Assembly (NCBI GenBank): GCA_000025185.1
Contig: CP001848.1
Location: 4,590,001-4,622,000 of the forward strand
Length of the DNA stretch: 32,000 nucleotides
Origin: Pirellula staleyi DSM 6068
Lineage (GTDB): Bacteria > Planctomycetota > Planctomycetia > Pirellulales > Pirellulaceae
Direction: 5' to 3'
Shown: positions 15,367-24,512 of the stretch, piece by piece
Position numbering within the stretch: position 1 is the first letter of the stretch
How the letters are laid out: the number at the start of each line of letters is the position of its first letter
The notes under the pieces: generated by a model
The model's database searches: none
What the model was told of the DNA's origin: nothing
The model's input: the letters and a program-made list of their open reading frames with translations, nothing else
Made by a program: the position numbers and the translations under genes

Positions 15367-18300
15367 CTACTTCATTTCGACCACTGGTTGCTCGGGAGCA
15401 AACGTGGCCAGTGGTTGTCCTTGGTCGTTCCAGATTCGCAGCACACTATCGGCGCCGCCAGCCAAAATTACTTTGCCATCGGCACTTTGAGCGGCGGTGT
15501 AGATATAGTCCGTAGCTCCGCTGAAATCACGCATGTTGCTTCCATTGGCAGCATTAGTGAGTCGCACACGTTGATCGCCACTGCTGACGAGCACCGCGTC
15601 TCCTTCTCCAGCGAAGTGGACGCTTGTCACTTCTTTGCCGAAGCCTTGAATCGTCCGGACCTGATCACCGGTTCGTGTGTCCCACACCTTCACCACGTTA
15701 TCAGCGCCGCTGCTGACGAGCATCCGTCCATCGGCTCGCCATGTAACACCAAGCACATGATGCGTATGTCCCTCGAACGAACGGACAAATTTACCACCGT
15801 TGACCTCAAACACTTTGACGAACCGATCTGCACCACAGCTGGCAACGTGCTGACCATCGGGTGAGAACTCGATGGAGTAAATCGTATCGCTATGAGCATC
15901 CTTAAGTGTCAGCACGAGATCGCCGGTATCAGCATTCCAGATTTTCAATTCGCCACTTCGTGATGGCTCGCCACCACCGGTTGCGATGAGTTTCCCATCG
16001 GGGCTAAATGCCACTGCGATTACGCGATCCACTAGCTTCTCGGGCGAGTCGGGCGAACCGATCATCCGTTCGAGTTTCCAGTCGACACCGATCTCATGGA
16101 TCATCGCCGTCGGCTGTTTGGCAACGCTCACGAGAAGTCCCGTGTCGCTGAAAGCCACCGCCGCAATAGGGCTGGCATGACCTTCAATCACTTCACCAGC
16201 ACCAGCCGTTTCACCATTCCACAGGTGGAGTAGGTTGTCGTCGCCACCGGTCACAATCCAGTTGCCATCGGCAGAGAAGGCGACACAACGCATCGGTTTA
16301 TCGGCTTCGGTCGCTTGCTTCTGAGTTGCCTCGAGTTGCTGCTGCATTTCGGTGGCGGTTTTTTCGGTGGCAGCGACGATTGCTTCCATGGGAGGAATCG
16401 CTTCGATTGCCTTCTTCACAGAGTCTGCTGCCCGCTCAACACTTCGCTTAGCAGCCTCGAGCGTTCGCTCGGCGGCTACCTTTTCGTCGAATGCCTTCTG
16501 AAATACAGGCATCACTTGCTTGAGCTTCTGATCCGCCTGATTAAAGGCATTCTGAGCATCGCTAGCAGCCTTATCCGCTACTTGCTTGGCTTCATCGGCG
16601 GCCTTTTTTGCAGCTTCAGAGTCCATCACCAGTTTGTCAGCAACAGCCTTGGCATCGGCAGCTACTTTACTAGCTTCTTCGGCGGTCTTGAGTTCGGTTT
16701 CGGCTGTGGCTACTGCATTCTTCAGATCAGCATTTTCTGGATCTTTGCCGAGTGAATCTTTGGCTGCGTTGAGCTTATCGGTTGCTGTTTTGAGAGCAGC
16801 GGTGGTGTCGTTTGCAGCCTTGTTTTTGACATCGCGATCAGCAATAGCAGCGGTGAGAGTGTCGGCTGCTTTCTTCTGATTGTCTGTGGCAGTAACCTTG
16901 TCCGCATCGGCTTTAGTTTTAGCGGCTGTGGTGTCGGCGACTGCTTTTTCAGCTTGTTCTTTTTCTGTAGTCGGAGCTTTGAGCGCTTCGTCTTTCGTTT
17001 TGAACTCTCCTTCGGATTTCGTGAGAGCCTCTTTCGACTTCTTATCGTTCTCTTCTTCTGCGGTCTTTCGTTTACCAGCTTCGGTAACATCGTTCTTGGC
17101 GTGCTCTACCATGCGTTTAGCGAGGGCAAGCTGACGCGACACTTCGCCTGTCTTGATCGTTGCACGAATGTCGCCACGGAACTCGGCGATCATTTGATTG
17201 TTCTCGGCGTTCCACAGCTTGCCGACATTGTTTGCACCCACCGAGACAAAGCGTTTCAGATCGGGGCGAAAGGCAACAGCTTCGACGGGTCCACCGTGAC
17301 TTAGATTCTGTGTAACGTTGCCCCCCTCGAGATTCACTACTCGCGCACTGCCATCGCGAGATCCGGTGAGGACTTGGTTTTTCGAGAGCACGGCAATCGA
17401 AGTAATCGCGCCGCCGTGTCCACCAATTTCTTTCGTAGGCTTGGGGGATTCTCCTTCGATCTTTGCGGTCGGAAGATCCCACAGGCGAAGCGTGTTGTCT
17501 TCACTACCTACAACGATCGACTTGTCCTCAAGCACCACACCGATCGAAAAGATCGGAGAAGGGGTCTCGATCGCAGCGATAAGAGAGCCGTCGGCTAGAT
17601 TCCACGTATGGAGTTTTTTGTCGGCAGCTCCCGAGACGAGCTTGGTGGCGTCGGACGAGAATGCCACGGCGGTGACGGGACCCGCATGGCCCTCGAGTGT
17701 CTTGATCGGCTGACCTGTCGCAAGATCAATCACCTTGATCTTGCCACCTTCTTCACCCACAGCAGCCAGTTTGCGATCGGACGAAATCGCCATCGAGCGT
17801 GCAGCCGACTCGAGACCAGCAATGTCGAGCTTCTTCGTGATGCCTGGCTTCTGCCAGATCTTTACGGTACGAAAACCACCGGAAGCGAGGCGACGACCAT
17901 CGGGACTGAAAGTAAGAGACTGAACAAGATCGAGATCAGCCACGCCAGGCTGCGTGTAGATGCCACGTTCGAGGAGTGCGGGATCGGTGAGTCGGCTTAA
18001 TTCGCGTCGACCAGGAACATGGTAGATCGAGACCTGATTCGCGCGGGCAGCAGCGCCGTACATGCCATCGCGAGTAACAGCGACCGCGTAGATCGGATTA
18101 ATACCAGCCGGAAGTGGCTGCCATGCTATGGGACCTTGCGAAGCCGAGAGGACTTCACCCTTCGCCCCTTGATCGATCCAGAGCTTAATCAAACCGAGTT
18201 CGTCGGACGAAAGTGGTCGTGCCTTCACATCGTTGTCCGCCGGCGGCATCACGGGTTCTTGCTGATGTGCCGACAACTTAAGGAGCAAGCTGCCTGCAGA

Positions 18301-18588
18301 GTTACCAGCAACTACCGAAGGTCCTTCACTCCCACCCTTAATGATCGCAGCGGGATTCTCGAGCACCAAATCGCTTTCCGCTTCAGTCGCGCTATGACAA
18401 GCGAGGCAGTTACGGCGAAAGATCGGCAGGATTTCGCGTTCGAAGTCGACCGGACCTTCGTGCTTCACATCGGCGATGGCAATCGGTGCGGCTTGCAAAC
18501 TCGCGGCACCTGCAGCGAGCGACATAGCTGACGCAACAAAAGCAAGTGTGCGATGGGCAAACAGGCGGGGAAGGATTTTCGAGAGCAT
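15367..18588 (-). CDS. Exported PSCyt1 (planctomycete cytochrome c-like) protein with two seven-bladed WD40 propellers separated by a long helical segment
   Basis: The ORF track gives 15367..18672. Start at ATG 18588 gives the signal peptide 'MLSKILPRLFAHRTLAFVASAMSLAAGAASLQA'. PSCyt1-like 'FEREILPIFRRNCLACHS...LSSDELGLIKLWIDQGA'. I count 7 + 7 WD40-like blades by eye (e.g. 'SLTFSPDGRRLASGG..VKIWQ', 'SIEFSPDGQHVASCGADRFVKVFEV'). Confidence 0.85.
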   Translation of the reverse strand: MLSKILPRLFAHRTLAFVASAMSLAAGAASLQAAPIAIADVKHEGPVDFEREILPIFRRNCLACHSATEAESDLVLENPAAIIKGGSEGPSVVAGNSAGSLLLKLSAHQQEPVMPPADNDVKARPLSSDELGLIKLWIDQGAKGEVLSASQGPIAWQPLPAGINPIYAVAVTRDGMYGAAARANQVSIYHVPGRRELSRLTDPALLERGIYTQPGVADLDLVQSLTFSPDGRRLASGGFRTVKIWQKPGITKKLDIAGLESAARSMAISSDRKLAAVGEEGGKIKVIDLATGQPIKTLEGHAGPVTAVAFSSDATKLVSGAADKKLHTWNLADGSLIAAIETPSPIFSIGVVLEDKSIVVGSEDNTLRLWDLPTAKIEGESPKPTKEIGGHGGAITSIAVLSKNQVLTGSRDGSARVVNLEGGNVTQNLSHGGPVEAVAFRPDLKRFVSVGANNVGKLWNAENNQMIAEFRGDIRATIKTGEVSRQLALAKRMVEHAKNDVTEAGKRKTAEEENDKKSKEALTKSEGEFKTKDEALKAPTTEKEQAEKAVADTTAAKTKADADKVTATDNQKKAADTLTAAIADRDVKNKAANDTTAALKTATDKLNAAKDSLGKDPENADLKNAVATAETELKTAEEASKVAADAKAVADKLVMDSEAAKKAADEAKQVADKAASDAQNAFNQADQKLKQVMPVFQKAFDEKVAAERTLEAAKRSVERAADSVKKAIEAIPPMEAIVAATEKTATEMQQQLEATQKQATEADKPMRCVAFSADGNWIVTGGDDNLLHLWNGETAGAGEVIEGHASPIAAVAFSDTGLLVSVAKQPTAMIHEIGVDWKLERMIGSPDSPEKLVDRVIAVAFSPDGKLIATGGGEPSRSGELKIWNADTGDLVLTLKDAHSDTIYSIEFSPDGQHVASCGADRFVKVFEVNGGKFVRSFEGHTHHVLGVTWRADGRMLVSSGADNVVKVWDTRTGDQVRTIQGFGKEVTSVHFAGEGDAVLVSSGDQRVRLTNAANGSNMRDFSGATDYIYTAAQSADGKVILAGGADSVLRIWNDQGQPLATFAPEQPVVEMK
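16300..17145 (-). other. About 280-aa Ala/Lys/Thr/Asp/Glu-rich predicted helical (coiled-coil-like) segment between the two propellers
   Basis: Translation from 'GEVSRQLALAKRMVEHAKNDVTEAGKRK...' to '...QQQLEATQKQATEADKP'. Almost no Gly or Pro, except 'SLGKDPENADL' (GKDPEN = nt 16732-16749) near the midpoint and 'IPPM' near the end. Confidence 0.6.
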
Positions 18589-18672
18589 GTCTCTACAACC
18601 TTTATCGGAGTTATGCAGCAGTTCTTGGCAAACTGGTGATGATTGACTTTCGACCCATACTTGGGGACGCAA

Positions 18673-21600
18673 CTACTGCGCTGCGGGAGCAGCTTCGACT
18701 TTGATTTTCACTTGCGTCGTTGCGCCGATATCGACGTTGTTGAACTTACCTTTCGCACGAATCGTGACGAGGTGCTCGCCGACCGTGGCATTATCCCCCG
18801 CCATGATTTCGAGCTTACCTTCAGCACCACCTTGCGGGACATTCACCTTCGGAGCCTGAATGCCTTGCACTCCAGGTGGGAGTTCGATGCTGAGTTCGAC
18901 AGCGTCGGCAAACTCGTACTTGCGATCGAGCTTGATCGTGAGTTCCGACTTCTCTTTTTGCTTCACAGCAACTTCAGCAGCCGGTGTGATTGTCAGGGGA
19001 GTCGGGACAATCCGGAGTTTGATGGGACTCGAGACCACCATGAAGTTGACGTCCTTCATTTGGTTGGCATTACGTGTGTCGGTGAGGCGTTTGTCAGCAG
19101 CTTGCTTCAGCTGATTCGCTTGCGCGAGTTGATCCATCGCAAGCTTAGCTGCAGCTTCCGATTCGGTTTTGGCGGTATTGGCAGCATCACGAGCCGCAGT
19201 GGCATCGACCACAGCCTTATCGGCAGTGGCTTTCGTTTCGTCGGCAGTTTTCACCACGGCGGTGAGATCGTCGACTACTTTTTGGGCAGCATTAGCGGCG
19301 TCGACGAGAGCCTGATTGGCTGCATCTTTGCTCGCGGCATCCTTGGCCTGTGTTAGTTTGTCGTTAGCAGCCTTCAGAGCGTCGGCTTGCTTCTTTGCTT
19401 CATTGGCAGCATTCGTTGCATTTTGCTGCGAGGTCTTCAAAGCTGCTTCAGCTTCGGCTGCTTTCTTGGTCGCTTCATCCTTCGCAGTGGTTGCTGTTTT
19501 CTGTTTCTCGGTGAACGTGGCAACCGTCATTTCAGCCTGCTTTTGTTCAGCCTCGGCAGCAGTAACCGCTTCGACGTTGCGGCCATACTTTCGCTTCGCT
19601 TCTGTGCTGAGGTAGAAGGTATAGGTACCGGGCTTGATGTTGTTTTGGGTCAGCTCGATTTCGAGTTTGCCATCGCCAGCACCGCCACCAATCGCCACTT
19701 CTTTGGGCTTAATCTGGTCGGGCAAACCATCGGCTTGCAGTTTGAGTTCGTCTTTAAATTCGCCGCGACGCAAGACACTCACAGGAATCGAAAGTTTGCC
19801 ACCTAGCGACGTTTCCCAAACTTTGTCTTCACCGGCGGTCACTTGCACGGGAAGCGTATCTTTCTCGGCGACAGCAAGATAGAAATGGGGTGTGAGACGA
19901 AACTTGCCGGGTTGCTGTTGGCGGTTGGGCGTTCCCCAAGTCACCTGGGCATAGCGGGCTTCGCGAACAAGTTCTTTGTCTCCTACGATGCTTTTGCCGA
20001 TCACGCGAATCGTGCCGCACCAGTTGGCAGCTTGATCGTTCGCCGAGAAGACCAACTTCGCGCGGTTTACTTCACCCCCGAGCAGAGCGCCGGTGCATGT
20101 CACGCCGGCAGGCAAACCCTCGACGGATAGCTGCACTTCACCTTGGAAATCATCGCGACGTTGCAGCACGACATCTACCGACGAGTTGCTGCCGCGATAT
20201 AGCGCAAGTGCGCCAGATGGAATCTGATTATTGTTCTGCTTCCGTCCAGCTTCAGGTGGATCATTCTCGACCAGCAAGCGAAAATCGGGAGCCAGGGGAC
20301 GCATAGCCAGTCGATAAACGTTGCCCGGATTGGCCACACCTTCGCCAAACTGATCGCGCACAAGTACGCGATAGGTGCCATCTTCGGGAACCAAGAATCG
20401 GAGCGATGGGTCGTCGCTTGTCGAATCGAAATCGCTACCAATCCGCTGCTGACGCTCCTGCGAATCATCCACCTGCATCAAGTCGTTAACTTTCTCGACA
20501 CCTGCCTCGTCCTTGGTGATTCGGAAAAAAGAAATCGCGGGATCACTCTCGAGACCTGCTTGATTCGAGATCACTTCGATCCAGTAGATATCACCCTTTT
20601 TGGCGTCGAATTGATACCAGTCGACATCTCCTTCAGGATAAAACTGACCAGCGATATCCACGGGAAGGGTGACGACTTGCGCATCGGTTGTTTTGTCACT
20701 CGCTTGTTGTTCGAGCACGACCGGAGCAGTTGCGAACTGCAGGGGAATGCCAACCGTGGCACTGCCGAAGTTGTGCTTGTGCTCGAACGTGTCGAGCCAT
20801 GCACCACGCGTTGGTGCTTGCTGGCAAACCACATGAGCAGCACCATCGCCAGGAATCCCAATGTTCAGTTGCACCTTTTCGAGCGGAACACCATCGATCT
20901 TCATACCGTCGGCAGGTTGGCTGCCAGGAAGGTTGCGACCGTAAATCCAGTAAGCACCACTGGAACCAGGAACACCTGCGGGTGGAAACACGAAATCGAT
21001 GATCGGCGAACTGCTGACCGACAAGCGATAGAAATAGTCGGGACCGCCACCAAAAATCGAATCGTTCAGCTTGATGAGGAAGTCGCCGGTGGTCGGCGCG
21101 GTGAAAACAAGCTGCGCATCTCGCGCAACATTAGCGCGCGCTCGCGCGAGTTGTTTACCATCGCTGCTAAGAACCGCCACCAGCGGACTCAGCCGCGAAT
21201 CGATACGGTCGGCCGTGACGTCGATCGTCACTTTCTCCCCTTGCTTTAGCGAGAGTTTAAAAAAGTCGCTGTTCGAGGCGTCGACCCGTCCGCTGAAGAC
21301 CTGCCCCAGCGTCATGGCGACTGCATTCTCGATGGCCGAGTTCGCGGCAGCTTCAACTACTTCCTCTTGACCACTCACCACAAAACGTCGTGCGCTAGAG
21401 AGACCAAAACGACCGAACGCGCGCACTTCGTATACGCCAGCAGGGACATCCCCCGCGATCTGCAGGGTGTAGACATTCGCAATCGGCTTAGCCGTCGGCT
21501 CGAACTCGGTGGGGGCCGACATTTTGGGGGTCGCCGCGATGCCGGGATGCGAAAACACCAGCTGCGTAATATCGTCGAGATCAGTTCCAGCGAGCGTCAC

Positions 21601-21759
21601 CTCGACCGTGGTTCCCTGGCGTCCCCCGGGCGGAAAGATGCTGGCGAGTTGAGGCCGTGGCATTTGTGCCACTGCGACGGAAGCCATCGCCAAAACCATA
21701 GCGAGCGGGCTTACGGCACGCTTCATGGCAGCAGCGAGCAGGGCGAAAAAAGCTGGCAT
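18673..21759 (-). CDS. Exported multi-domain protein: two IPT-like + PPC (pre-peptidase C-terminal type) units, further beta-sandwich domains, long helix, C-terminal beta-sandwich
   Basis: The ORF track gives 18673..21816. The preferred start is ATG 21759 (AGGAG 7 nt upstream); ATG 21726 (MKRAVSPLAMVLAMASVAVAQ) is an alternative. PPC-like segments 'SDFFKLSLKQGEKVTIDV...GDFLIKLND...YRLSV' and 'GDVDWYQFDAKKGDIYWIEV...GTYRVLVRD...VYRLAM'. Recurrent 'LSVEGLPAGV / LQADGLPDQI / LSIELPPGV' domain signature. Confidence 0.8.
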   Translation of the reverse strand: MPAFFALLAAAMKRAVSPLAMVLAMASVAVAQMPRPQLASIFPPGGRQGTTVEVTLAGTDLDDITQLVFSHPGIAATPKMSAPTEFEPTAKPIANVYTLQIAGDVPAGVYEVRAFGRFGLSSARRFVVSGQEEVVEAAANSAIENAVAMTLGQVFSGRVDASNSDFFKLSLKQGEKVTIDVTADRIDSRLSPLVAVLSSDGKQLARARANVARDAQLVFTAPTTGDFLIKLNDSIFGGGPDYFYRLSVSSSPIIDFVFPPAGVPGSSGAYWIYGRNLPGSQPADGMKIDGVPLEKVQLNIGIPGDGAAHVVCQQAPTRGAWLDTFEHKHNFGSATVGIPLQFATAPVVLEQQASDKTTDAQVVTLPVDIAGQFYPEGDVDWYQFDAKKGDIYWIEVISNQAGLESDPAISFFRITKDEAGVEKVNDLMQVDDSQERQQRIGSDFDSTSDDPSLRFLVPEDGTYRVLVRDQFGEGVANPGNVYRLAMRPLAPDFRLLVENDPPEAGRKQNNNQIPSGALALYRGSNSSVDVVLQRRDDFQGEVQLSVEGLPAGVTCTGALLGGEVNRAKLVFSANDQAANWCGTIRVIGKSIVGDKELVREARYAQVTWGTPNRQQQPGKFRLTPHFYLAVAEKDTLPVQVTAGEDKVWETSLGGKLSIPVSVLRRGEFKDELKLQADGLPDQIKPKEVAIGGGAGDGKLEIELTQNNIKPGTYTFYLSTEAKRKYGRNVEAVTAAEAEQKQAEMTVATFTEKQKTATTAKDEATKKAAEAEAALKTSQQNATNAANEAKKQADALKAANDKLTQAKDAASKDAANQALVDAANAAQKVVDDLTAVVKTADETKATADKAVVDATAARDAANTAKTESEAAAKLAMDQLAQANQLKQAADKRLTDTRNANQMKDVNFMVVSSPIKLRIVPTPLTITPAAEVAVKQKEKSELTIKLDRKYEFADAVELSIELPPGVQGIQAPKVNVPQGGAEGKLEIMAGDNATVGEHLVTIRAKGKFNNVDIGATTQVKIKVEAAPAAQ
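19060..19572 (-). other. About 170-aa Gly/Pro-free Ala/Lys/Thr/Asp-rich predicted helix
   Basis: Translation from 'EAVTAAEAEQKQAEMTVATFTEKQK...' to '...KQAADKRLTDTRNANQMKD'. It contains no Gly or Pro, and its composition mirrors the helical segment of the downstream gene. Confidence 0.6.
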
Positions 21760-22010: not shown

Positions 22011-24512
22011 TTAGTGATTAAAGAGAAACTCTTTCGTATTGATCAGAGCCCAAACAATATCTTCGTAGGCTCGCTTGGGGTCCTCAGCGTTCTTTTCGAT
22101 GTGAGCCACAGCAACAGCCAGTTCTTCGGGCAGGGGGGCCCGGCCGAAGGTGAGGAGATAAAGCTCACGAATCTTCACGTCGTGCGGACGCTCTTTGTCA
22201 GCAGCCAACTTGGCAGCGCGACCACCACCGCTCGTGAGTTTGCCTTGAATCTCGCCCGAGTTGAGCAGGTGCAAGCTCTGAGCCAGATTGGCCTCGCTCG
22301 ATCGTTCGCACTCGCAAGCCGAACTCGACTCTGGCCGACCAAACACGGTGAGGAAGTAGCTATTGAAGCCGTTGTCGGGCAACTGCACGGCGCGGGTTCC
22401 GTTGGGAACACCACCAAAGTTGCTTTGCGTTCCGGTCACCTGATCGATGGCGTCGAGCAGCACTTCGGCATTGAGTCGCTTGGGGTAGTAGCGGCTGAAG
22501 TTTTGCTTGTCGTCCTGATTCCACTCATTGGGCTCCGCCGTGAGCTGATAGGTGCTCGAGCTGCAGATCGTATGGCAGAGCTTCTTCAGATCGAACTTGC
22601 TGTCGACAAAGTCCTTGGCCAGTGCATCCAAGAGCGCTGGATTCGAGGCCGGATTGGTCACCCGCATGTCATCTTCGGGATCGACCAGACCACGACCAAA
22701 GAAATGCTTCCAGTATCGATTCACAAGCGAGCGTGCGAAGAATGGGTTACTCGGGTCCGACATCCAATCGGCCAGGGCGCGACGAGGATCTTCGTCGGCA
22801 GTCAGTTCGAGCGGAGCGCTCCCAAGTCCGGTGGGCTTCACGGCCTGACCGGTCTTTGGGTTACTCGCCTGCGCGATCCCTCGGCGATGGTAGATTCGAT
22901 CTTCGTTTTGCACTTCACCACGCTTACGACCCACTTGAGCAAAGAAGGCGGCAAAACCGTAGTAGTCTTGCTGACTCCATTTTTCAAACGGATGGTGATG
23001 GCAGCGGGCACATTGAATGCGTAGTCCCAGGAACAGCTGAGCCGTATCCTCGACCTGTGCCGACTGATCTTTCACTTCGCGATACCAAGCTACAGGAGCA
23101 TTTTTGCCCGCTTCGCCGGTAGCCGTCAGGATTTCGCGTACGAACTGATCGTACGGTTTGTTTTCGTGCAAACTTGTCCGAATCCAGTCGTGAAACGTGA
23201 AGGTGTAGTTCTTTTCGAAATCTTGGCGACGCTTGTTACGCAGGATTGCGTTCCACTTGTTGCCAAAGTAATCGGCGTAGTCGGTGCTTTCGAGCAAACG
23301 TCGAATGACGTTATCCCGTTTGTTAGGGTCGGCATCAGCCAGAAACTGTTCCGCTTCCTCAAGCTTTGGCAAGCGACCAGCGAGGTCGACCGTCACACGA
23401 CGAAGAAAGGTGGCATCGTCACTAACACCCGACGATGGCAAACCGAGATCGCCCAATTTTTTGAAAACCAATTCGTCGATGAAGTTCTTCTTGCCGACGT
23501 TTGACTCGGACTTTACGCCGAGGGGAACAGTGGCGCGGAACACACCGACGTGACCTTGGTAGCGCGCCATGATGGCGACACTACCGGTCAATTGGCCCGT
23601 CGTCACCAGACCGGTAACACTCACTTCGGCCATTTCGGTGTCGTTGCTGTCAAACTGAGCTGTACGCGTGACATCTTCGGTCGAGCCGTCACTGAGGTGA
23701 GCAATCACCACCGCTTGTTGCGTGGTGCTGCGATCCATCAGGCGTTCCGAAGGAAAGACTTCGATATGCGTAACGACCGGATCAGTCTCTTTGCCGTAAG
23801 GCATTCCTTGCTCGATCCAGCGTTTCATCAGGCGATAGGCTGGGGAGTCGAAATCAACACGCTGTCCGCCACCGTGAGGCAGGCGTGCGGTTGCCTTGAG
23901 GAGCAGCAAACTTTGATCGGGAGCAGCGGGGAAGATTCGCCGGCCGCGTCCTTCTTTGACGAGATATTCGTAGTCTTCCTTGGGCTCGAAACCTAAGAGT
24001 GAAAGACGGAAACCGTTTTGGCCACCACTCTTTCCGTGGCAGCCACCACCGTTGCAGCTGTATTTCGTGAAAAGGGGGGTGATCTGGTTGGCGAAGTTGA
24101 TGGGCAGATCGGTCACAAGGTTGGTGACACGGGATTTCAGCTGCAGTTTCTGACCAGCGGCGTCGACCTCGATCGTGGTTTCCCCTTCAGCAATGGGGGT
24201 CACGAGGCCAGTTTCGTCGATTGCCACAATACCGGCAGGATTAGCCGAGTATTTGGACGAGCGGGTTAGGTCGCGGGTTTGTCCGCTGTTATAGAGACCT
24301 GTAACCACGAGTTGCTGAACAGCGTCGCGACCCGAGAGTGTAAAGAGTCCATCGACAGTGCGACCGGTATCGACCTGAATCGATGTCAGCTGACCAGGAT
24401 CACCGAGACCTGGAGCCTTCGGTTTTTCGTCGGCGGCATACGAGCTCGAGGCAAAAAGTAAGCAACTAAGAAGCAAGAGCCGAGAGAGCGGCAGGTGGGG
24501 ACGTGAGGGCAT
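22011..24512 (-). CDS. Exported Ig-like (Big_2-type) + PSCyt2 (DUF1549) + PSD1 (DUF1553) protein
   Basis: 833-aa ORF with GGAAGGGA SD 6 nt upstream. Signal peptide 'MPSRPHLPLSRLLLLSCLLFASSSYA'. Two Big_2-like segments ('AIDETGLVTPIAEGETTIEV', 'VSVTGLVTTGQLTGSVAIMA'). 'CNGGGCHGKSGGQNGFRLSLLG'. DUF1549-like 'FIDELVFKKLGDLGLPSSGVSDDATFLRRVTVDLAGRLP'. 'IQCARCHHHPFEKWSQQDYYGFAAFF'. DUF1553-like 'LVNRYWKHFFGRGLV...ACECERSSEANLAQSLHLLNS'. Confidence 0.88.
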   Translation of the reverse strand: MPSRPHLPLSRLLLLSCLLFASSSYAADEKPKAPGLGDPGQLTSIQVDTGRTVDGLFTLSGRDAVQQLVVTGLYNSGQTRDLTRSSKYSANPAGIVAIDETGLVTPIAEGETTIEVDAAGQKLQLKSRVTNLVTDLPINFANQITPLFTKYSCNGGGCHGKSGGQNGFRLSLLGFEPKEDYEYLVKEGRGRRIFPAAPDQSLLLLKATARLPHGGGQRVDFDSPAYRLMKRWIEQGMPYGKETDPVVTHIEVFPSERLMDRSTTQQAVVIAHLSDGSTEDVTRTAQFDSNDTEMAEVSVTGLVTTGQLTGSVAIMARYQGHVGVFRATVPLGVKSESNVGKKNFIDELVFKKLGDLGLPSSGVSDDATFLRRVTVDLAGRLPKLEEAEQFLADADPNKRDNVIRRLLESTDYADYFGNKWNAILRNKRRQDFEKNYTFTFHDWIRTSLHENKPYDQFVREILTATGEAGKNAPVAWYREVKDQSAQVEDTAQLFLGLRIQCARCHHHPFEKWSQQDYYGFAAFFAQVGRKRGEVQNEDRIYHRRGIAQASNPKTGQAVKPTGLGSAPLELTADEDPRRALADWMSDPSNPFFARSLVNRYWKHFFGRGLVDPEDDMRVTNPASNPALLDALAKDFVDSKFDLKKLCHTICSSSTYQLTAEPNEWNQDDKQNFSRYYPKRLNAEVLLDAIDQVTGTQSNFGGVPNGTRAVQLPDNGFNSYFLTVFGRPESSSACECERSSEANLAQSLHLLNSGEIQGKLTSGGGRAAKLAADKERPHDVKIRELYLLTFGRAPLPEELAVAVAHIEKNAEDPKRAYEDIVWALINTKEFLFNH

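Follow-up and report, generated by a model that had tools for sequence, protein, structure and literature searches.

Why should a protein place almost 300 helical residues between two WD40 propellers? The question is raised by a gene in a 32,000-nucleotide (nt) stretch of the Pirellula staleyi DSM 6068 genome (GenBank assembly GCA_000025185.1, contig CP001848.1, positions 4,590,001 to 4,622,000), hereafter the window. The gene (15367..18588, stop codon included) encodes a protein of 1,073 amino acids (aa) that consists, in this order, of a signal peptide, a PSCyt1 haem-c domain, a seven-bladed WD40 propeller, a 292-aa linker, and a second seven-bladed propeller. Unless stated otherwise, positions are those of the window, and all features described in it lie on the minus strand. 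An original prediction, made from the letters of the sequence, had proposed that the linker folds back on itself as an antiparallel hairpin. We strongly infer that the linker is indeed an intramolecular antiparallel two-helix coiled coil, which would form a rod of about 21 nm with both propellers at the same end. To the favored explanation as a whole, which comprises a fold-back stalk, matched lengthening of its arms, export to the periplasm, and a role as a strut or tether, we assign a probability of roughly 80%.

The linker comprises residues 474 to 765 (nt 17169-16294). The original prediction had given it about 280 residues (16300-17145, approximately residues 482 to 763), which falls short of the full 292, and had described it as made almost purely of Ala, Lys, Thr, Asp, Glu, and Gln. 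These six residues do dominate, together making up 71% of the linker. We modeled the 1,073-aa protein with AlphaFold2 as a monomer, using an alignment of 97 sequences, and obtained a mean predicted local distance difference test (pLDDT) score of 88.8, a predicted template modeling (pTM) score of 0.71, and pLDDT values of 76 to 95 in the coil. The result was neither disorder nor a single long coil. The N-arm helix has 142 residues (474 to 615; 16744..17169), the C-arm helix has 143 (620 to 762; 16303..16731), both delimited by the model and by heptads, and the sole nonhelical stretch between the two is D616-P-E-N619 (16732..16743). This turn, assigned from the model and from conservation, lies inside a K-D-x-x-N-x-x-L motif (linker positions 142 to 149), which reads KDPENADL in the window protein. 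The GKDPEN sequence that had drawn attention to the center of the segment is residues 614 to 619 and was correctly located at nt 16749-16732. Since the rise in a coiled coil is about 0.148 nm per residue, the 142 residues of an arm give a rod of about 21 nm. That the two helices pack against each other and hold the propellers side by side we infer from the four-residue loop, the whole-chain pTM, and the comparative data described below.

The heptad pattern also supports the hairpin. Heptads are unbroken in both arms, with 20 in the N-arm (linker positions 3 to 142) and 20 in the C-arm (149 to 288), and the six residues left between them (143 to 148) are the turn. Ala is found at heptad position a with a frequency of 0.69 in the N-arm and 0.72 in the C-arm, compared with 0.08 to 0.48 at the other positions, and positions d and e (3 and 4 residues past a) are likewise apolar or Ala. 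The hydrophobicity profile of the family has a 3.5-residue period in every subsegment of the linker, at 5 to 15 times the mean spectral power. GKDPEN had been taken as the only clear helix breaker, a claim that was half right. Other Pro and Gly sites exist (G8, G32, G54, P66, P221, and P259-P260), and some are far better conserved than the Pro of the turn itself (99% for P66, 82% for P221, and 94% for P259 versus 25%). However, all of them are helical in the model, where only residues 616 to 619 form a loop. P66 and P221 are symmetric about linker position 143.5. A mirror correlation of hydrophobic positions peaks every 7 residues (i + j = 265, 286, 293, and 314), so it does not fix the helix register and was not used as evidence.

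If the stalk folds back, its two arms should have the same length in relatives of the protein as well. The family is large: the protein database lists more than 5,800 members. By scanning genome contigs, we confirmed 564 encoding stretches and kept the best 80 loci, which come chiefly from Pirellulales, other Planctomycetota, and Verrucomicrobiota. A phylum-wide genome search with the full protein gave a tally of 7 of 151, which we regard as unreliable and did not use, since it scored just 5 of the roughly 100 WD40 candidates in each genome. Cultivated relatives carrying the gene include Anatilimnocola aggregata and A. floriformis. Measured between conserved anchors, the linker is exactly 292 aa long in 89 of 121 homologues (50 to 78% identity) and in 108 of 199 sequences when the genome loci are added. 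Within the 292-aa class of homologues, the turn is well conserved: D143 in 76/89, N146 at the exact midpoint in 86/89, and L149 in 87/89. Many linker lengths fit 166 + 42k (166, 208, 250, 292, 376, 460, and 544 aa), a step that corresponds to three heptads per arm. With L as the linker length, the K-D-x-x-N-x-x-L motif is found at L/2 - 4 in the 292, 376, and 460 classes, and a one-residue variant, KDPNSQAL, is found there in the 544 class. The growth can be followed in two distinct 42-aa repeats, one in each arm, with 1 + 1 copies in the 292 class, 2 + 2 in the 376 class, 3 + 3 in the 460 class, and 4 + 4 in the 544 class. At the DNA level, 126-nt tandem arrays flank the turn separately, with 4.0 and 3.6 copies in one relative (locus L038) and 3.1 and 2.3 copies in another (L001). 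Two independent arrays are held in balance, and therefore the arms must match. We found no tandem repeats at the DNA level in the window's own gene, the 292 class having one copy of each repeat.

We further ran a simple turn detector on 36 length classes, the shortest of 166 aa and the longest of 544 aa. In 24 of them, the strongest turn-like hexamer lay no more than 8 residues from the midpoint, while about 12%, or about 4 of the 36 classes, would be expected from a uniform distribution. The symmetry of arm lengths and break position in orthologues, which had been suggested as a check on the hairpin, was thus borne out by the central motif, the matched 42-aa repeats, and the central turns. 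The predicted arms and the turn position are symmetric in the relatives wherever they can be measured, and the alignments show lengthening of the putative rod only by matched additions to both arms. Covariation points the same way: of the top 60 long-range mutual-information pairs (corrected by the average product), 10 have i + j = 293 ± 5, compared with about 2.4 expected, an approximately 4-fold enrichment. In the arrays of these two relatives (L038:6668-7761 and L001:11601-12459, in the coordinates of those loci), the copies are 71 to 84% identical to each other, and a subperiod of 63 nt (21 aa) is also present.

A second hairpin of this kind is encoded next door. The upstream gene (18673..21759) encodes an exported multi-β-sandwich protein of 1,028 aa with a PPC domain (PF04151, E = 1e-11). 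Its AlphaFold2 model (pLDDT 90.2, pTM 0.80) has a helical hairpin inserted between two sandwich domains, with helices at residues 729 to 811 and 816 to 898 (83 + 83 aa; 19066..19575), the loop DAAN (nt 19315-19326), and the tip AKDAASKDAANQAL. The insert aligns to positions 61 to 218 of the WD40 protein linker, that is, to the part between P66 and P221, with a score of 203, far above those of shuffled sequences (mean of 113, maximum of 149, z = 8.5), and therefore the two hairpins are probably paralogous. The aligned region includes the tip, where AKDAASKDAANQAL of the PPC protein is matched by AKDSLGKDPENADL of the WD40 protein. Among the aligned homologues of the PPC protein, the insert usually measures 176 aa; inserts of 92 and 134 aa are among the other classes, and in each of these the turn is again exactly central.

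Several results weigh against the favored explanation. The AlphaFold2 run was biased toward folding back, because a monomer prediction offers no intermolecular partner. The strongest turn-like hexamer is off center in 12 of the 36 length classes, mostly at landmarks of the P66 or P221 type. The covariation is supportive but weak, as its effective sample size is no more than about 52 sequences. The lengths of the stalk and the PPC hairpin are uncorrelated across 55 loci (rho = 0.20, P = 0.14), so that we gave less weight to a pairing of the two rods over their whole length. Lastly, among 42 upstream and 70 downstream neighbors in the relatives, no constant fourth partner gene accompanies the three-gene module described below.

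In a different arrangement, the linker would be one nearly continuous helix of about 290 residues in an extended antiparallel homodimer. The N-arm of chain A would lie on the C-arm of chain B, as in a domain-swapped hairpin, giving a dumbbell of about 42 nm in which each end has propeller 1 of one chain beside propeller 2 of the other. Such a dimer predicts the same covariation at constant i + j, the same compatibility of the arms, and the same heptad continuity, and it is compatible with what AlphaFold2 gave for the monomer. However, in most length classes the exact center holds helix-capping or helix-breaking residues (D, P, N, and G), which a continuous helix would not need. The PPC neighbor, moreover, has the same design between two sandwich domains of one chain, modeled with a pTM of 0.80, and there a fold-back is the simpler solution. 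We therefore consider the extended dimer quite improbable.

The paralogous hairpin suggests another alternative: the hairpin may be real but serve for association, packing side by side with the PPC hairpin or with its own copies, so that a bundle of four or more helices would keep a complex together. The paralogy and the common tip motif fit such a role, as does the gene arrangement: of the 69 loci for which an upstream match was found, most have the two genes next to each other on the same strand. Furthermore, with a, d, and e all Ala or hydrophobic, the apolar stripe is wider than a simple two-helix coil requires. This pattern, however, is equally expected of tight Alacoil-type antiparallel two-helix pairs, of which it is typical. 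The lengths, too, speak against bundling, since the PPC insert stays at 176 aa beside WD40 protein stalks of 242, 292, 376, 460, and 544 aa, in addition to the missing correlation reported above. Association as the purpose of the hairpin is thus unlikely in our view.

We also considered whether the segment could be a parallel homo-oligomeric coil with a flexible central hinge or a flexible low-complexity spacer between two independent propellers. The composition, rich in Ala, Lys, and Glu, would suit either, and the coiled-coil content of one homologue evidently led to its automatic annotation as "Chromosome partition protein Smc." However, neither a parallel coil nor a spacer requires equal arms, a central turn, or the matched growth of two different arrays, and neither accounts for an exact length shared by more than half of the sequences. 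Disorder is disfavored by the strict heptad phase and by the pLDDT values of the coil. We regard this alternative as barely credible.

The fold-back stalk brings to mind known systems. The SMC, Rad50, and MukB proteins share its topology, in which a long intramolecular antiparallel coiled coil brings two globular parts together at its base. Those proteins, however, are cytoplasmic and have ABC-ATPase heads, a hinge or zinc hook, and arms of about 300 to 350 aa, while the window protein is predicted to be exported, has arms of about 142 aa, an apex that is only a turn of 4 to 6 residues, and no ABC-ATPase heads in Pfam and NCBIfam searches. Lacking both heads and hinge, it falls outside the SMC/Rad50 family.

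The packing of the stalk is predicted to be Alacoil-like. In Alacoils the helix axes are about 7.5 to 8.5 Å apart, and the classic cases are short helix pairs within globular proteins. Such antiparallel coiled coils were reportedly described by Gernert et al. in 1995. What the stalk would have in common with them is the antiparallel arrangement and Ala at every seventh position in both 20-heptad arms, a likeness in sequence pattern. In contrast to the short intraglobular pairs, the stalk would be a free-standing rod.

Periplasmic adaptors of the AcrA, MacA, EmrA, and HlyD family have a hairpin of variable length with a conserved tip motif between β-rich domains, and the likeness is closest for the neighboring PPC protein. 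However, no HlyD, biotin-lipoyl, β-barrel, or MFP family was found by Pfam in either hairpin protein, and TolC-like or pump genes are not conserved nearby. Because none of the adaptor domains is present, we treat the adaptor hairpins as a possible functional analogy only.

Structure searches returned parts of the architecture. Foldseek with the 1,073-aa model against the PDB gave generic propellers only and no analogue of the stalk. The best matches were tandem WD40 double propellers with two seven-bladed propellers per chain (2ymu, Aip1 [1nr0], and UTP proteins of the small-subunit [SSU] processome), with E values down to 3e-37. Their query-normalized TM-scores did not exceed 0.26, however, and they have neither a long helical hairpin between the propellers nor a haem-c domain. 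With the PPC protein model, Foldseek against the PDB returned generic MG-domain and ColG-PPC sandwiches only, again with no analogue of the stalk.

What, then, stands at the base of the rod? The open reading frame (ORF) containing the gene is longer than the gene itself (15367-18672, 1,101 aa, with a TTG start at 18672). We used M29 at nt 18588, which is the start in the cluster representative of 1,073 aa. Residues 1 to 33 (18490..18588) read as a Sec-type signal peptide, MLSKILPRLFAHRTLAFVASAMSLAAGAASLQA followed by APIA, and residues 1 to 31 have pLDDT values below 50 in the model. The PSCyt1 c-type cytochrome domain follows at approximately residues 40 to 145 (18154..18471). The original prediction of an N-terminal PSCyt1 module was confirmed by a PF07635 match on the first 100 aa (E = 2.7e-7) and by the CxxCH motif, C61-L-A-C64-H65 (nt 18394-18408). 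C61, C64, H65, M114, P115, and P116 are invariant among 97 homologues. The haem attachment motif is thus kept, and haem binding is predicted. Given the signal peptide and the haem-c domain, the protein is most likely exported to the periplasm.

The first propeller spans approximately residues 160 to 473 (17170..18111), as assigned from AlphaFold2 strands and Pfam propeller families, and has 28 strands from E166 to E471 with pLDDT values above 90. The second, at approximately residues 766 to 1066 (15391..16293), was assigned from AlphaFold2 strands and invariant columns and also has 28 strands, from E766 to E1063. Twenty-eight strands on either side of the linker mean seven blades per propeller, in agreement with the seven plus seven WD40-like blades that had been counted by eye. 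Apart from PSCyt1, Pfam detected only WD40 and tandem-propeller families in the protein. Two motifs of propeller 2, E939-G-H-T-H-H-V945 and G871-x-G-x-P-S-R-x-G879, are invariant in the family. They exceed the usual WD40 signature: the latter, GGGEPSRSG in the window protein, has G871, G873, P875-S876-R877, and G879, and the former, EGHTHHV, has three invariant His residues. These motifs could be a candidate ligand- or metal-binding site turned toward the haem domain.

Some homologues are longer because one or two extra WD40 propellers are inserted between PSCyt1 and the stalk (P0065, P0070, and P0119, with 1,605 to 1,653 aa; P0059, P0086, and P0096, with 1,297 to 1,361 aa). The stalk in these homologues is 292, 250, or 238 aa long. 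We had looked at the proteins of 1,300 to 1,650 aa as possible Rosetta stone fusions, but their excess length is more WD40 propellers, which is uninformative on function.

Conservation is uneven along the stalk. The best-conserved part of the linker is the proximal third (positions 1 to 65 and 222 to 292), in which R34, E38, N41, K59, K225, A226, E229, R242, and R246 are invariant. One N-arm heptad, at linker positions 38 to 44 (residues 511 to 517, EEENDKK), lacks any apolar core residue and is nearly invariant, with E38 and N41 each found in 89/89. It could be a polar layer or a candidate binding site in the proximal stalk. The distal part, in contrast, evolves through the gain of repeats.

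We propose the following mechanism. The chain would reverse at the short conserved K-D-x-x-N-x-x-L turn, so that propeller 1 would end close to where propeller 2 begins, at the base of the stalk. From the haem domain and the two propellers, the rod would extend outward for about 21 nm. It may act as a rigid strut or tether that fixes a distance within a periplasmic assembly with the products of the two upstream genes. Binding surfaces would lie on the propellers and on the conserved proximal third of the stalk, and the distal part, built from repeats, would set the reach. This strut or tether function is much less certain than the fold itself. Three features indicate that the geometry of the rod is under strong selection: the length of 292 residues is conserved exactly, the repeats expand in step in both arms, and the turn is central. 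In cell envelopes, spacers, tethers, and reach elements typically show such a pattern.

The proposal could be taken further. The stalk might be a tunable molecular ruler, in which matched additions of 21 or 42 residues set the reach of the twin-propeller haem protein in the enlarged periplasm of the Planctomycetes-Verrucomicrobia-Chlamydiae (PVC) bacteria, the homologous tips of both hairpin proteins would meet a common docking site, and the whole would form an as yet undescribed envelope assembly specific to Planctomycetota and Verrucomicrobiota. We offer this extension as a speculative possibility, with the odds against it.

The third gene of the module, first in its order, is 22011..24512 and encodes a protein of 833 aa with Big_2, PSCyt2 (DUF1549), and PSD1 (DUF1553) domains, as identified by Pfam. 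Pfam found no PSCyt1 match in it at E ≤ 0.01. Most of the 69 loci that gave an upstream match retain the order PSCyt2-PSD1, PPC, PSCyt1-WD40, which is conserved across Planctomycetota and Verrucomicrobiota. A promoter and terminator scan gave counts at the level of shuffled sequences, and no operon claim rests on it.

The module itself is already known as an uncharacterized PVC cluster. Kamneva et al. (2012, Genome Biol Evol, PMC3542564) described a cluster of DUF1501, PPC, PSCyt1-Big_2-PSCyt2-PSD1, and PSCyt1-WD40 genes at the domain level, correlated with PVC cell organization and of unknown function. According to He et al. (2017, PMC5615132), nothing is known about what these genes do. Three of the four genes described by Kamneva et al. 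are matched here in domain content, in clustering, and in the phyla that carry them (Planctomycetota and Verrucomicrobiota), but their module includes a DUF1501 gene, which is not adjacent in the window locus. The portions of Kamneva et al. that could be consulted deal with domains only and do not mention helical hairpins, symmetry, or quantized lengths; those of He et al. do not mention hairpins. We likewise found no relative of the linker in a sequence search of the PDB and no model for it in NCBIfam. All this agrees with the original statement that the architecture could not be assigned to a characterized family. In the literature searched, the symmetric, Ala-cored, length-quantized stalk and its paralogue in the neighbor have apparently not been described. 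PSCyt, PSD, and DUF1501 genes belong to the most expanded and least understood families in Planctomycetota and Verrucomicrobiota, and for one conserved module the predicted structure offers a concrete, testable architecture, in which an exported haem domain and both propellers would be clamped at the foot of a rigid rod, with a second, paralogous rod next door.

The PSCyt1/WD40 gene is single copy in its own 6.2-Mb genome. A second ORF with PSCyt1 and WD40 domains, of 1,001 aa at about 5.029 Mb, is unrelated to it. None of the 57 DUF1501 genes of the genome falls within the window; the closest are about 27 to 31 kb before its start. A few loci with the full module came from genome bins labeled as neither Planctomycetota nor the expected lineages of Verrucomicrobiota, namely, metagenome-assembled genomes (MAGs) titled Acidobacteriota and Haliangiales (L052 and L054) and MAGs titled Akkermansia muciniphila (L043 and L076). 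These labels may reflect misbinning or mislabeling and not the real distribution. Among the neighbors of the module in relatives, DUF1501 was found at 6/42 upstream and 2/70 downstream positions and an HtrA-like Trypsin-PDZ protein at 5/42 upstream positions. Downstream, cinA was found in 10/70 (close relatives only) and a BBP7 porin in 3/70.

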